This document shows, one piece after another, positions 7,282-58,007 of a stretch of 64,000 nucleotides of DNA (positions are counted from its first letter, which is position 1; every line of letters starts with the position of its first letter). This stretch comes from Candidatus Latescibacterota bacterium (lineage in GTDB: Bacteria; Latescibacterota; UBA2968; UBA8231). The notes under the pieces were generated by a model, which made no database searches, was not told the origin of the DNA, and saw only the letters and a list, made by a program, of their open reading frames with translations. The stretch is from positions 640,001-704,000 of the forward strand of contig CBDFJF010000001.1 of the NCBI GenBank assembly GCA_965248265.1, given 5' to 3'. The position numbers and the translations under genes were made by a program.

Positions 7282-9326
7282 GTCGAGTAGCCGAGGCCCT
7301 GTCATGCGGCCCCGGCCCTCACCAGATCCCAGCGAGCAGATTTCCCGCACTGGGCTCCTCCATTGACACGTCTCGCGGTTAGGAAAACCAGATCGATACA
7401 ACGATCCGGGGTCTTGGGAGTGGATACTGCCGGAGCAACCCCCGGTAGTATCGCTCCCACGTCAGGCGCGATCGCTGGCTACGTCGATTCAACCACTTGT
7501 ACCACGCAAACATCGCTGCGGTAGTGAGTTGGGTTACGCTGTTCCCATTCCCGCTGATACCGAAGTAGTTGATGTGGCCTTGGATGCGCCTTACGAGGTC
7601 GGCGTGCTGCTTTGGTATCGGCCAGTTCCGATGGCGACGGCACAGCCGATACAGGGCCTGCACAGACCGCTTGAGCCGATCACGCCGTGTCTTGCTCGTC
7701 AGCACCCATCGACCATTCGGGGCTCTCCGCCAAAACCACGTGAAACCCAGAAGGTCGAAGGTACCTGGCCCTTTACCCTTCGTCTGCTCCTGTGGTGGCC
7801 GCTCGAAAGGGATGAGCCGGGTCTTGTCTGGCTGCAGGGTTAGTCCGTATTTGTCCAGCCGCTTGCTCAGCACTGCCCTCACGCGCTCGGCATCCTCCGG
7901 CAGTTCGAAACCAATGATGAAATCATCGGCGTATCGGACCAACGTTGCTCTACGACGCAACCGTGGTCTGATCTCGACTTCAAACCACTCGTCGAGGACG
8001 TGGTGCAGGTAGAGGTTGCCAAGCAGTGGCGACAAACAGGAGCCCTGTGCGGTGCCTCGGTCCGGCGTAGAAAACTGTTCGCCATCCAGCACCCCAACGT
8101 GCAAGCACTTCCCCACGAGCCGGGTGATCGACCCATCGGGAATCCGCTCCCGGAGAAACTCCATCAGTTTGGATCGATCCAAACTGTCGAAGTAGGATGT
8201 AATATCCGCCTCCAGAATGACCTTCGCTTCCCCGTTCATCACCACCCGATTCAACACCCGCAGAGCGTCGTGGGCACTGCGTCCCGGACGGTAGCCGTAT
8301 GAGCAATCCCGAAAGTCCTGCTCGTAGACCGCCGACAGCACCTCGCGTAACGCCTCCTGGACAATCTTGTCCTCGAAGCACGAGATGCCAATGGGACGAG
8401 TCTTCTTGCCTTTGCCGTCCTTGGGGATGTGGACTCTACGAATGGGCTGGTGGCGCCACCGCTTAGTGCGCAGTCGCCGGTGCAGATCCTGCAGATTCCT
8501 CTCCAGGTCCTGCCCATACTGCTCCTTGGTCACGCCATCTACCCCGACTGCAGCGCTCGGCTTTTGATGGTCGAACGCCCTACGCAGAGCTTCCACGTCG
8601 ATCAGGTGTGCCAGCGAGTGAAACTTGGCCTGCGGCTCTCGCCTCGCTCTCTCCGCTACCTCCAAAAGTCCCGGTGACATGGACCCCGAAGTCAATGCAT
8701 CGGTCATGGTGCCCTCCTGAAGTTCGTGTCAACACGGACCGCCTTGGCTCCGCCGGGTCCAGCTGCCAACCGTTCCCCGACTTCTCAGCTACTACACGGT
8801 CCTCCGACTCCCCATGCTCCATCGGTCGCCGCTCCGGTTCCCCTCGCAAACGACCTACCACGGTGCCCACGCTTGTTCTTAATCGGCCACGCGTGCGTGT
8901 GCTGACGCGTGGCGCGTCGGAGACTTCTTCACCGGCTCTCCGTAGCACCGGAATCAATCCGTGGAGAGGCTGGGGCCTCCCAGGTTCCTGGGTCATCCTC
9001 TGCGAGCGTGCCCTGGTCGTATCACACCCCGCCGGGGTGTCGTCGCCTTGCCCACATAACGCCGACGACACTGCTGCCTTCAGGTAATCCGGCACCCTCA
9101 GCTATCCCGGAACGGTCTCATTTCAGGGCCGCAATCCCACAGCCCGCTCGCTCACTGCCCTACTGCTTCGCCTGCCCCGTTACCGGGAACACACGCAAGG
9201 GCTCGTTTCTGGCCTGCCGGGCTCAGCTTTGGCCAGGCGGGTTTTGCACCCGCGGGACGACTAACCGTATTTCAAGAAAGTATCACCTCCTTCTATTCCT
9301 ACGGACCAGACTTGCCTGGTCGCATC
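7282..9326 (-). mobile_element. Group II intron copy 1
   Basis: 5' GATGCGACC; domain V GAGCCCAGTGCGGGAAATCTGCTCGCTGGGATC; domain VI ending CTACTCGAC; RT ORF inside. Confidence 0.93.
7379..8707 (-). CDS. ltrA: Group II intron reverse transcriptase/maturase (no endonuclease domain)
   Basis: GVDGVT, RPIGIS, GTAQGSCLSPLL, YADD, FDLLGF, domain X. Confidence 0.96.
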   Translation of the reverse strand: MTDALTSGSMSPGLLEVAERARREPQAKFHSLAHLIDVEALRRAFDHQKPSAAVGVDGVTKEQYGQDLERNLQDLHRRLRTKRWRHQPIRRVHIPKDGKGKKTRPIGISCFEDKIVQEALREVLSAVYEQDFRDCSYGYRPGRSAHDALRVLNRVVMNGEAKVILEADITSYFDSLDRSKLMEFLRERIPDGSITRLVGKCLHVGVLDGEQFSTPDRGTAQGSCLSPLLGNLYLHHVLDEWFEVEIRPRLRRRATLVRYADDFIIGFELPEDAERVRAVLSKRLDKYGLTLQPDKTRLIPFERPPQEQTKGKGPGTFDLLGFTWFWRRAPNGRWVLTSKTRRDRLKRSVQALYRLCRRHRNWPIPKQHADLVRRIQGHINYFGISGNGNSVTQLTTAAMFAWYKWLNRRSQRSRLTWERYYRGLLRQYPLPRPRIVVSIWFS

Positions 9327-9349
9327 CGGACCCTGAATCTGATTCCCTA
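9327..9349. repeat. 31-bp two-arm site interrupted by intron 1 (left part 7274-7281)
   Basis: Reconstructed ACGCCCAT|CGGA-CCCTGAA-TCTGATTCCCTA. Confidence 0.75.
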
Positions 9350-9474
9350 GCTGAGGTCTCGACCTACCCTTGCCACTGTTGTCGGCTGCATCCTACTCTC
9401 TTGACCACTAAGAGCGAAGCCAACAGGGTGCCCCTTCCCACTGCGGTGCAATGGATCTTCCAGAGGGAAACTGA

Positions 9475-55655: not shown

Positions 55656-55944
55656 AGGCAGCGAGCGCGGGCGCACGACTGATGGCCGCTGAGATGTCCT
55701 CGAAGGAGTCGCCGGCCGGCGGAGGCGGCGCTACATCGCTTTGAAGTATGCGGCGCGGCCGACCACCGACGCACACGTTGAGTCCTTGAGGATGTGGTCT
55801 CCGAGCGTGTTCAGGCCCGAGGCGGTGCTCTTGAACAGCGATCGGCCGCGCATTCGGGGTCTGGTGGCAGATCTCGTGGAGCTGGGAAGAACGGATTAGC
55901 ACTCGCGGCCCCCGCAACGCGAATGGCAGCCGCTCGCCGACCAT

Positions 55945-57984
55945 GTTGAGTAGCCGGGGCTAGTCACCTAGCCCCAGCCCTCACCAGAGCCCAGCGAGCA
56001 GATTTCCCGCACTGGGCTCCTCCGTTAACACGTCTCGCGGTTAAGAAAACCAGATCGATACGACAATTCGAGGTTGCGGTAGCGGATACTGCCGAAGTAA
56101 GCCTCGATAGTATCTCGCCCATGTGAGGCGCGATCGCTGGCTACGGCGATTGAGCCACTTGTACCACGCCATCACTGCTGCGGATGTGAATAGGCTTACG
56201 CTGCGCCCATTCCCACTAATACCGAAGTAGTTGATGTGGCCCCGGATGCGTCGTACGAGGTCAGCGTGTTGCTCGGGGATCGGCCAATGGCGGTGTCGAC
56301 GACAGAGTCGATATAGCGCCTGTACTGATCGCCTGAGCCGATCACGCCGCGTCTTGCTCGTCAGCACCCATCGCCCCGTCCGGGCCCGTTGCCAATACCA
56401 CGTGAAGCCCAGAAAGTCGAAGGTACCTGGCCCCTTGCCCTTGATCTGCGCCTGTGATGGCCGCTCAAAAGGGATGAGCCGGGTCTTGTCCGGCTGCAGG
56501 GTCAGTCCGTATTTGTTCAGCCGCTTGCTCAGCACTTCCATCACCCGCTCTGCATCCTCCGGCAGTTCGAAACCAATGATGAAATCATCGGCGTATCGGA
56601 CCAACGTTGCTCTACGACGCAACCGCGGTCTGATCTCGACTTCAAACCACTCATCAAGGACATGATGCAGGTAAAGGTTGCCAAGCAGCGGCGACAAACA
56701 GGAGCCCTGTGCGGTGCCACGGTCCGGCGTCGAAAATTCCGCACCGTCCAGCACCCCAACGTGCAAGCACTTCCCTACGAGTCGGGTGATCGACCCATCG
56801 GGAATCCGCTCCTGGAGAAACTCCATCAGCTTGGATCGATCCAAACTGTCGAAGTAGGATTGGATATCCGCCTCCAGAATGACCTTCGCCTCCCCGTTCA
56901 TCACCACCCGATTCAACACCTTCAGGGCGTCATGGGCACTCCGTCCCGGCCGGAAGCCATATGAGCAGTCACGAAAATCCTGCTCGTAGACCGCCGCCAA
57001 CACCTCGCGTAACGCTTCCTGGACAATCTTGTCCTCGAAGCACGAGATGCCGATGGGACGGGTCTTCTTACCCTTACCGTCCTTGGGGATGTGGACTCTG
57101 CGAATGGGCTGGTGGCGCCACCGCTTACTGCGAAGCCGCTGGTGCAGATCCTGCAGATTGCTCTCCAGATCCTGCCCATACTGCTCCTTGGTCACGCCAT
57201 CCACCCCCACTGCGGCGCTCGGCTTTTGATGGTCGAACGCCCTCCGCAGCGCATCTACATCGATCAGGTGTGCGAGCGAGTGAAACTTGGCCTGCGGCTC
57301 TCGTCTCGCTCTTTCCGCTACTTCCAAAAGTCCCGGTGACATGGACTCCGAAGTCAATGCATCGGTCATGGTGCCCTCCTGAAGTTCGTATCAACACGGA
57401 CCGCCTTGGCTCCGCCGGGTCCGGTGCCAACCGTTCCCCGACTTCACAGCTACTACACGGTCCTCCGACTCCCTTACTCCGTCGGCCGCCGCTCCGGTTC
57501 CCCTCGCAAGCGACCTACCACGGTGCCCACGCTTGTTCTTGTTCGGCCACGCATGCGTGTGCTGACGCGCGGCGCGTCGGAGACTTCATCACCGGCTCTC
57601 CCGATCACCGGAATCTCCCGTGGAGAGACAAGGGCCTCCCAGGTTGCTGGATCATCCTCTGCGAGCGTGCCCTGGTCGTATCACACCCCGCCGGGGTGTC
57701 ATCGCCTCGCCCAATAGCGCCGACAACACTGCTGCCTTCAGGTACAACGGCACCCTCGGCTATCCCGGAACGTTCTGCATTTCAGGGCCGCCAATCGCAC
57801 GGCCCGCTCGCTCGCTGCCCTACTGCTTCGCCCGTCCCGTTACCGGGACGCACGCAAGGGCTCGCTTCTGGCCTGCTGGGCTCAGCTCTAGCCAGGCGGG
57901 CTTTGCACCCGCGGGACGACTAACCGTATTTCAAGAAGTATCACCTCCTTCTATTCCAACAGACCAGCCTAGCCTGGTCGCATC
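55945..57984 (-). mobile_element. Group II intron copy 3 (diverged relative of copies 1/2)
   Basis: 5' GATGCGACC; domain V; end CTACTCAAC; RT ORF. Confidence 0.93.
56041..57369 (-). CDS. ltrA: Group II intron reverse transcriptase/maturase
   Basis: YADD; same length (442 aa) as copies 1/2 with scattered substitutions. Confidence 0.96.
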   Translation of the reverse strand: MTDALTSESMSPGLLEVAERARREPQAKFHSLAHLIDVDALRRAFDHQKPSAAVGVDGVTKEQYGQDLESNLQDLHQRLRSKRWRHQPIRRVHIPKDGKGKKTRPIGISCFEDKIVQEALREVLAAVYEQDFRDCSYGFRPGRSAHDALKVLNRVVMNGEAKVILEADIQSYFDSLDRSKLMEFLQERIPDGSITRLVGKCLHVGVLDGAEFSTPDRGTAQGSCLSPLLGNLYLHHVLDEWFEVEIRPRLRRRATLVRYADDFIIGFELPEDAERVMEVLSKRLNKYGLTLQPDKTRLIPFERPSQAQIKGKGPGTFDFLGFTWYWQRARTGRWVLTSKTRRDRLRRSVQALYRLCRRHRHWPIPEQHADLVRRIRGHINYFGISGNGRSVSLFTSAAVMAWYKWLNRRSQRSRLTWARYYRGLLRQYPLPQPRIVVSIWFS

Positions 57985-58007
57985 CGTTGTAGCAGTGCGA
58001 TAACCGG
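57985..58007. repeat. 31-bp two-arm site interrupted by intron 3 (left part 55937-55944)
   Basis: Reconstructed CCGACCAT|CGTT-GTAGCAG-TGCGATAACCGG. Confidence 0.85.

Follow-up and report, generated by a model that had tools for sequence, protein, structure and literature searches.

To our knowledge, group II introns specialized on the recombination sites of cassette arrays have been known only in one class C sublineage, whose target is the integron attC site. These IIC-attC introns (e.g., S.ma.I2) are described as occupying repeated cassette-array sites at a fixed position and in one orientation, splitting the site that they enter (PMC3001079, PMC7923331), and their target is given as TTGT/T (PMC7923331). 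For the class IIB introns RmInt1 and RmInt2 of Sinorhizobium meliloti, which lack an endonuclease, the published account describes homing into multi-copy mobile DNA through pairing of exon-binding and intron-binding sites (EBS and IBS), a bias toward the lagging-strand template, occasional ectopic insertion into genes with a similar IBS, and probable inactivation of the invaded element; the targets of RmInt2 are the inverted repeats of ISRm17 (PMC5894124). Halophile IIB introns (UHB.I2, H.ha.F1/F2), found in cassette arrays or in clusters of attC sites lacking integron-integrases (CALINs), are portrayed as non-class-C introns associated with cassette-array recombination sites, as single or fragmented copies that lie next to attC and share no conserved exon sequence (PMC7923331). 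Here we analyze a 64,000-nucleotide (nt) stretch of the genome of a Candidatus Latescibacterota bacterium (GenBank assembly GCA_965248265.1, 7.32 Mb in two contigs, C1 and C2), which we call the window (C1:640001-704000). On its minus strand it holds three group II introns, all intact (7282-9326, 15014-17058, and 55945-57984), inserted into members of an array of 31-base-pair (bp) sites that resemble the core sites of a recombinase.

These introns share features with each of the described systems. As in the IIC-attC case, a sublineage sits on repeated array sites at a fixed position and in one orientation, and the site is split; unlike attC, the sites are conserved in sequence over 31 bp and show no covariation between their arms, and the associated recombinase falls far below the integron-integrase model. 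The traits listed above for RmInt1 and RmInt2 are observed or probable here as well, but the target is a recombinase-type core site present about 100 times in arrays rather than an insertion sequence (IS), and two intron subfamilies are tuned to site subtypes. Where the halophile introns are single or fragmented, five intact copies here, with matching EBS, occupy one insertion point. It is fair to see a functional analogy to the introns that target attC, and the behavior is a convergent variant of the known specialization of introns on recombination sites. We consider it probable that the copies arose by ordinary IIB-type retrohoming independent of an endonuclease, with the inner arm and spacer of a recombinase-type site as the homing site, subfamily-specific EBS, and a bias toward the lagging-strand template.

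Six full copies of the intron are present genome-wide, and they account for every match to the group II reverse transcriptase (RT) model: I1 to I3 in the window, in the order given above, I4 (C1:725095-727134, minus strand), the gene-borne I5 (C2:783717-785761, plus strand), and I6 (C2:3891548-3893592, minus strand). The limits of the similarity were read from an alignment of the three window copies with their flanks. I1, I2, and I6 show zero differences over 2045 nt and I5 differs from them at one position; I3 and I4, the second subfamily, are identical over 2040 nt and differ from the first-subfamily copies at 214 positions. All six copies keep an intact open reading frame (ORF) with a YADD motif, which in the window encodes 442 amino acids at 7379-8707 (I1), 15111-16439 (I2), and 56041-57369 (I3, with 92% identity to I1) of the minus strand. 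The product is a group II RT/maturase by Pfam RVT_1 (E 1.7e-31) and TIGR04416 (309.7 bits against a cut-off of 300, residues 41-409); these were its only family matches, and no nuclease family and no endonuclease domain was found among them. On the RNA side, the Rfam domain I-IV model RF02005 is matched over its full length (model 1-225) in I1 (9017-9246, 100.7 bits), I2 (16749-16978), and I3 (57676-57904), with scores of 99.3-100.7 bits against a threshold of 49, each match being located upstream of the RT ORF. Identity within the subfamilies and the intact YADD ORFs suggest active copies and recent activity, and the differences between their flanks, found to either side both inside the site and past it, point to separate insertions. 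As a detail of domain V (7324-7357 in I1), our reading of the alignments places an A opposite the middle base of the AGC triad, usually faced by U, in the first subfamily and most relatives, and a C in the second subfamily.

The insertion point is the same in five of the six copies. Read on the intron strand, the 5′ exon ends in TCCG at I1 and I2 and in AACG at I3, and the 3′ exon begins with ATGGGCGT at I1, ATGGGCAA at I2, and ATGGTCGG at I3; the exon ends and starts elsewhere are AACG/ATGC at I4, TCCG/ACGG at I6, and TCCG/ATCT at I5, and the first base of the 3′ exon is A in all six. When the intron is excised, the plus strand shows a site of two inverted 12-bp arms around a 7-bp spacer, with a left arm split into 8 + 4 nt, the 7-nt spacer, and a 12-nt right arm that begins 12 nt from the intron 5′ end. 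The outer part of the left arm (8 nt), which forms the 3′ exon when read on the intron strand, lies at 7274-7281 for I1, 15006-15013 for I2, and 55937-55944 for I3, and the inner 4 nt with spacer and right arm at 9327-9349, 17059-17081 (spacer cacagag), and 57985-58007 (spacer gtagcag), all on the plus strand, the I3 site thus ending at 58007. To avoid circularity, the junctions were scored with a matrix built from 64 unoccupied sites only, giving 18.7 (I1), 34.7 (I2), 25.8 (I3), 18.0 (I4), and 32.0 (I6), against -22.2 for I5, which lies in frame in a gene and has no second arm. The initial annotation, made from the letters of the window, had described three introns at the same nucleotide of the left arm, in the same orientation and 12 nt from the right arm, whose removal restores a 12-7-12 site; both the exon ends it reported and the restored site are borne out by the excision and by the independent matrix.

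Could such a pattern arise from a short IBS1 alone, or from an assembly in which one collapsed repeat was pasted at several places? We find this scarcely credible. The copies are identical within subfamilies, and in the short-read contigs of the likely source sample (runs X1 and X3) the assembly breaks at the intron edges, as an artifact would have it. In the sequencing runs compared, all of them contigs, none joins across the intron, so that neither an empty allele nor splicing was seen. Against an artifact, the 29,845 places in the genome with an in-register TCGGA or TCGTT have a median score of -31 and only 54 of them score at least 15, compared with five of the six junctions; chance is excluded as an account of the five site-borne copies. 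In runs X1 and X3 the intron is covered at about six times the depth of its flanks, as expected for six copies, and the reading frame at I5 is exactly restored.

The boundaries themselves are supported at several places. I5 interrupts its host gene in the sense orientation, and the frame of 354 codons resumes as 272 codons only with the ends GAUGCG and CUCGAC, so that a shift by one base either way would break it; the downstream part of the gene carries an FlgD-Ig-like domain. (The gene encodes a putative secreted protein that also has a weak Por secretion tail.) Two unoccupied sites allow a comparison of flanks. One, in the window (40379-40409, plus strand), shares 40 of 48 nt of its left flank with I4 up to the junction, with no extra base, and is the paralogous empty counterpart of the I4 site; for the other, at C1:868174, homology to the right flank of I3 starts at the first base past the intron, again with no extra base. 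The register of EBS1, described below, is the same as in relatives and also supports these limits. Group II introns typically begin with 5′ GUGYG and end with AY 3′, and the 3′ end AC fits. Among 22 clade loci, 16 start with GUGCG and six with G-N-(U/A)GCG, and in the latter the exon base before the G is explained by EBS1 pairing and by homology to the exon of a canonical relative. A weak hint for the I2 boundary comes from a 5,473-nt contig of run X20, from a related organism, which matches window positions 14700-15013 with 11 differences and whose match ends at 15013, the last base before I2, though the contig continues. The first bases of the intron also look like the arm that they displace (match at 17055), which we regard as coincidence, as a relative with the same start lies in an unrelated target.

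How the introns read this target is visible in domain I. We aligned 19 clade members over their first 400 nt and obtained a consensus fold with 92 predicted pairs, 52 of which show compensatory changes. A terminal loop (alignment columns 243-251) holds a variable 7-nt stretch, EBS1, that forms a mean of 4.67 of 6 Watson-Crick pairs with the intron's own 5′ exon across 18 clade introns, compared with 2.22 in mismatched combinations. EBS1 reads CGGAUUA in I1 (9085-9091), I2 (16817-16823), I5, and I6, whose exons end in TCCG, and CGUUGUA in I3 (57743-57749) and I4, whose exons end in TACAACG (all window copies on the minus strand; seven Watson-Crick pairs in I3); this difference between the subfamilies is a compensatory change. 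The IBS1 reaches 6-7 bp in three copies, and in the first subfamily the Watson-Crick core is 4 bp, with the longest pairing, six Watson-Crick pairs, in I5, the copy without a second arm. About 30 nt upstream of EBS1 lies a second variable loop that resembles EBS2 and in several relatives is complementary to the exon at about -13 to -8, with one clear case of covariation (CUAUG with CAUAG, CUAUCCC with GGGAUAG). In I3 (loop at 57771-57782, minus strand) and I4, GCAG in this loop pairs with CUGC of the spacer, extending the pairing to 11 contiguous nt that cover the whole spacer and 4 nt of the arm. This 11-nt match is perfect at four genomic sites, of which two are occupied, compared with none of the 19 other TCGTT sites.

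These pairings bear on the class of the intron, which the initial annotation had linked to the class C-attC introns. The intron RNA matches the Rfam family D1D4-6, which is likewise the match for a Sorangium relative, for a relative from a same-family genome (G021, locus L002), and for an intron on a rhizobial plasmid. As a reference we used an intron borne by a class 1 integron, located between the aadA1 cassette and qacEdelta1 and opposite to the cassettes, which we took as IIC-attC from this context and not from its name; it matches D1D4-3 and D1D4-1, and its RT is only 27% identical to ours, compared with 58-73% identity within our clade. Class C introns are characterized by a small ribozyme, the lack of an EBS2, and an IBS1 of 3-4 bp that follows a stem-loop. 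Unlike IIC-attC introns, the introns here also have a longer 5′ ribozyme part (619 nt before the ORF), an EBS2-type pairing, an IBS1 of up to 7 bp, and a target of TCCG/A or AACG/A instead of TTGT/T in the R″ of attC. Judged by RNA family, pairwise RT identity, exon pairing, and target, the intron is not class C-attC, and that link is not supported; the ribozyme is probably that of an IIB-like intron without an endonuclease. Literature searches for the Rfam family name returned the Rfam 15 papers alone, which map it to no intron class, and one for Sorangium introns yielded nothing of use. The Sorangium cellulosum intron Sg.ce.I1 is assigned by Toro and Martinez-Abarca (2013) to group g2 of the former class F, with an IIB-type RNA (PMC3552965). 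Sorangium cellulosum So ce56 has four loci with RTs 62-65% identical to ours and the same Rfam RNA family; these loci may include Sg.ce.I1, and the varieties without an endonuclease called class F or g2 may be close. The g2 consensus is given as FADD (PMC3552965), whereas our copies and the Sorangium loci have YADD; FADD occurs in more distant clade members.

An explanation closer to class C would have the introns guided by structure, with the intron particle recognizing a hairpin formed by the site in single-stranded DNA together with an IBS1 of 4 nt, in the manner known from terminators and the bottom strands of attC. The site is indeed an inverted repeat, five of the six copies stand at a fixed distance from its second arm, and the Watson-Crick core of the first subfamily is only 4 bp. 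In a search of the RT against the Protein Data Bank (PDB), the three best matches, chains 7uim, 5hhl, and 5hhj, which we take to be class C RTs, gave E values of 1e-38 to 4e-37, which would also suit such a mechanism. LtrA scored nearly as well (2e-35), however, and the six RT chains matched (1e-38 to 5e-30), which presumably span several intron classes, do not discriminate between classes. As for the site itself, the arms of single sites are complementary at 7.16 of 12 positions, compared with 7.04 when the right arms are shuffled among sites (highest of 2000 shuffles, 7.51), so that arm-to-arm covariation is absent, and the symmetry is that of a consensus bound by a dimer, a protein-binding site in duplex DNA, rather than of a hairpin kept site by site as in attC. 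Moreover, the insertion point falls inside the inverted repeat, within the would-be stem and not after a stem-loop, the clade shows EBS2-type pairing, the RNA belongs to D1D4-6 and not D1D4-3, and I5 has no second arm. We therefore judge targeting by a hairpin to be improbable.

Only one of the two nearly symmetrical arms is used. As the site is nearly palindromic, the pentamer required by the first subfamily can be found in either arm; three of 14 left-arm TCGGA targets are occupied, compared with none of 38 right-arm TCCGA targets. From GC skew, the replication origin lies near C1:2.95 Mb and the terminus near C2:3.47 Mb, and with the direction of replication taken from this skew, all six copies lie on the strand with leading-strand skew, that is, the lagging-strand template. 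Introns without an endonuclease are described as needing a replication primer (PMC4424553); a lagging-strand-template bias is reported for RmInt1, and RmInt2 is described as using both inverted repeats of its IS, one of which is always on the lagging-strand template (PMC5894124). Insertion into the lagging-strand template would explain the use of only one arm here.

Taken together, IIB-type retrohoming would proceed as follows. Recognition would occur mainly by RNA-DNA base pairing, EBS1 pairing with the last 4-7 nt of the 5′ exon (4 nt of arm and as many as 3 nt of spacer); the second subfamily would add an EBS2-type loop that pairs with the next 4 nt of the spacer, and the first base of the 3′ exon, always A, would serve as IBS3. 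The EBS1 and EBS2 of the two subfamilies would thus fit two site subtypes. Insertion would take place into the strand that templates lagging-strand synthesis, with the intron borrowing a replication primer, and the array would supply many intergenic copies of the homing site. With only 4 bp of one arm remaining beside the spacer after an insertion, the site is probably disabled. The data show the anatomy, the pairing with its compensatory changes, and the biases in site and strand; retrohoming, the priming by replication, and the loss of site function are deduced from them.

Several observations weigh against this reading or leave it incomplete. The domain V-VI model RF00029 exceeds its threshold for I3 alone (55945-56021, 46.3 bits against 40), although the corresponding parts of I1 and I2 align base for base with I3 and with relatives, and, as we read the alignments, the domain V triad of the first subfamily has an A opposite its middle base. 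The 5′ end GAUGCG is one base longer than the consensus. Support for EBS2 is modest, with a longest run of 4.1 nt on average for own exons against 3.0 for mismatched ones, and runs of at least 5 nt in 4 of 18 own and 21 of 306 mismatched combinations; no EBS3 was located in the intron. In the first subfamily, EBS2 forms at best three Watson-Crick pairs and a wobble, and occupied sites do not rank first; EBS1 and EBS2 together form seven Watson-Crick pairs at occupied sites and 5-9 at unoccupied left-arm TCGGA sites, so pairing beyond the core does not predict occupancy, which must depend on a further factor, such as protein contacts, chance, or time. The direction of replication comes from GC skew across two contigs whose joins are assumed, and within the array itself this skew is close to zero. 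Splicing and mobility were not observed directly.

The specialization belongs to this genome. The RT clade (58-73% identity) extends over Gemmatimonadales, Acidobacteriota, delta-proteobacterial and myxobacterial genomes, Eisenbacteria, Rubrobacteraceae, Chloroflexota, and Gammaproteobacteria, and the best plasmid match of the RT is 44% identical. Among 60 related genomes, seven have the RT at E 1e-60 or better, and the two closest full copies with both ends (in G021 and G026) lie in unrelated targets. For 20 relatives in other genomes with enough 5′ exon, the would-be inner arm, spacer, and second arm score from -1.7 to -52 on the site matrix, and none of the 20 occupies a site of this kind; the EBS1 loops of these relatives fit exons of their own that differ from those here. 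The refuting case named in the initial annotation thus occurs in part, as one of the six copies here has IBS1 alone and no second arm, and the 20 scored relatives lie outside such sites. The proposal that an intron lineage exploits these sites holds for the two subfamilies of this genome and not for the RT clade as a whole. In runs X5 and X20 (marine metagenome contigs and a second organism), we also noticed pieces 85-98% like our intron, including one X20 contig with the first 197 nt of the intron at four differences, which diverges 3 nt beyond the 5′ end and thus has another target.

The sites form an array of considerable size. A discovery matrix from 17 site instances gave 104 matches at 18 bits or more, compared with 5 in shuffled sequence, and with a limit of 16 bits the genome has 99 distinct unoccupied sites besides the five occupied ones. 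The layout expected of a tyrosine-recombinase core site, an inverted pair of arms with 6-8 bp between them, fits the 99 unoccupied and the five occupied sites. Most unoccupied sites (63) lie in C1:647-1014 kb (about 370 kb), 56 of them in plus orientation; nine lie in C2:3.889-3.922 Mb, all plus, and four in C2:3.039-3.061 Mb, three of them minus, with 23 scattered. Relative to the replication direction read from skew, site orientation is alike in all three clusters. The spacers are recurrent 7-mers, one type occurring eight times and several four to five times.

Sixteen unoccupied sites lie in the window. On the plus strand and with scores in brackets, they are at 11960-11990 (29.5), 12333-12363 (25.9), 12890-12920 (30.3), 18569-18599 (23.6), 24723-24753 (21.9), 30154-30184 (31.2; its left arm carries the first-subfamily target TCGGA), 32495-32525 (20.6), 38040-38070 (27.7), 38644-38674 (30.4), 40015-40045 (20.4), 42219-42249 (32.9), and 60335-60365 (24.5), besides the counterpart of the I4 site already named and two weak sites at 19641-19671 (16.5) and 35731-35761 (16.4). 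A single site, 62795-62825 (22.3), has the opposite orientation, on the minus strand.

A Xer-like tyrosine recombinase at 45700-46638 (minus strand, C1:685.7 kb; PF00589, E 2.5e-27) is the candidate enzyme for these sites. A second paralogue, 82% identical to the first, runs off the window end (63263-64000, minus strand, C1:703.3 kb; PF00589, E 1.4e-29), and a third (C2:3033478-3034311, plus strand) and a fourth (C2:3930289-3931146, minus strand) each point toward an array. The four are 80-83% identical, and each lies inside or beside one of the three site clusters. The paralogue search also found a fifth, fragmentary copy (C1:731070-731390), and a six-frame search two matches with an in-frame stop. 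The recombinases fall far below the XerC/D cut-offs and reach 74-76 bits (74 for the first) on the integron-integrase model TIGR02249, against a cut-off of 265.

Several duplicated segments, up to 98.4% identical, begin or end at the sites or within a few bases of them, for example C1:762434-763929 and C2:3907684-3909179 (1.5 kb, 98.4% identical) and C1:697980-698292 and C1:868178-868493. By association, this would fit site-specific recombination of gene blocks. It also invites the view that the introns themselves spread as DNA, with site-specific or homologous recombination moving an intron-bearing half-site or cassette in place of repeated retrohoming; the copies are identical within each subfamily, and the 5′ exon stretch common to I2 and I6 is 19 nt long, that common to I3 and I4 11 nt. 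These common stretches are, however, the spacer and arm of site subtypes that are also found unoccupied, the outer left arms and the right arms differ between copies, the flanks beyond are unrelated, and I5 lies in a gene without a site. An occupied site, with only 4 bp of its left arm kept, would also be a poor recombination substrate. We hold spread at the DNA level to be very unlikely, and prefer retrohoming into each site.

The recombinases and the duplicated segments are also the better support for the sites as real entities, a role that the initial annotation had given to the introns: as recognition is by sequence, the introns add little independent proof of site function. Its description of the sites as neutral targets holds for genes, since the sites are intergenic, and less so for the sites, which an insertion probably disables.

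Array blocks carry genes on both strands, unlike integron cassettes. Of 60 related genomes, eight encode a homologue of the array recombinase, at 35-55% identity. In about 62 kb around three of these homologues (two genomes), a small sample, we found one site-like match beside one recombinase and no array, and a degenerate site pattern run over 61 genomes was too noisy to reveal arrays in relatives. A 12-7-12-like sequence at G021:C4:477332 (locus L068:1333) lies beside a recombinase of 40% identity, and its spacer and right arm are identical to those of a lone site in our genome (G000) at C1:2258249; this sequence may represent an ancestral single site of the family. A literature search for such arrays returned integron papers only and nothing similar, which is no proof of absence in print.

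Traces of other mobile elements were seen in and around the array. Directly before its first site lies a tRNA-Glu(CUC) gene (6463-6538, plus strand), overlapped by a large serine recombinase remnant (6498-7145, minus strand) that is truncated N-terminally and keeps only the zinc-ribbon part; together they look like what an earlier integration at the tRNA has left behind. At 27552-28199 (minus strand) there is a fragment of a Y2-transposase (IS91-type). In the array outside the window, IS-like multi-copy repeats of 1.2-1.3 kb with at least 10 copies genome-wide are found at C1:841240-842556, 931015-932178, and 965646-966960.

A bolder interpretation would make the sites and the four Xer-like recombinases an undescribed integron-like cassette system with spacer “addresses,” in which unrelated IIB-like introns convergently adopted the lifestyle of attC introns, with EBS1 and EBS2 tuned to spacer types; we regard it as possible but doubtful. 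If it were true, intron copies would lock sites by splitting an arm, and with identical copies in sites and in an ordinary gene, homologous recombination could graft half-sites onto new genes, the route of cassette genesis proposed for IIC-attC introns. The five occupied sites, set beside 11 unoccupied first-subfamily targets and two unoccupied perfect second-subfamily targets, form a natural experiment on target and strand choice. The array, with about 70 sites of one orientation over roughly 370 kb and its own recombinase family, may be a more important and more novel object than the intron. For the introns, a different lineage, IIB-like and without an endonuclease, does the equivalent of attC targeting on a different kind of site and apparently by plain base pairing. 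Recombination sites present in many copies may thus have served retroelements as safe havens more than once.

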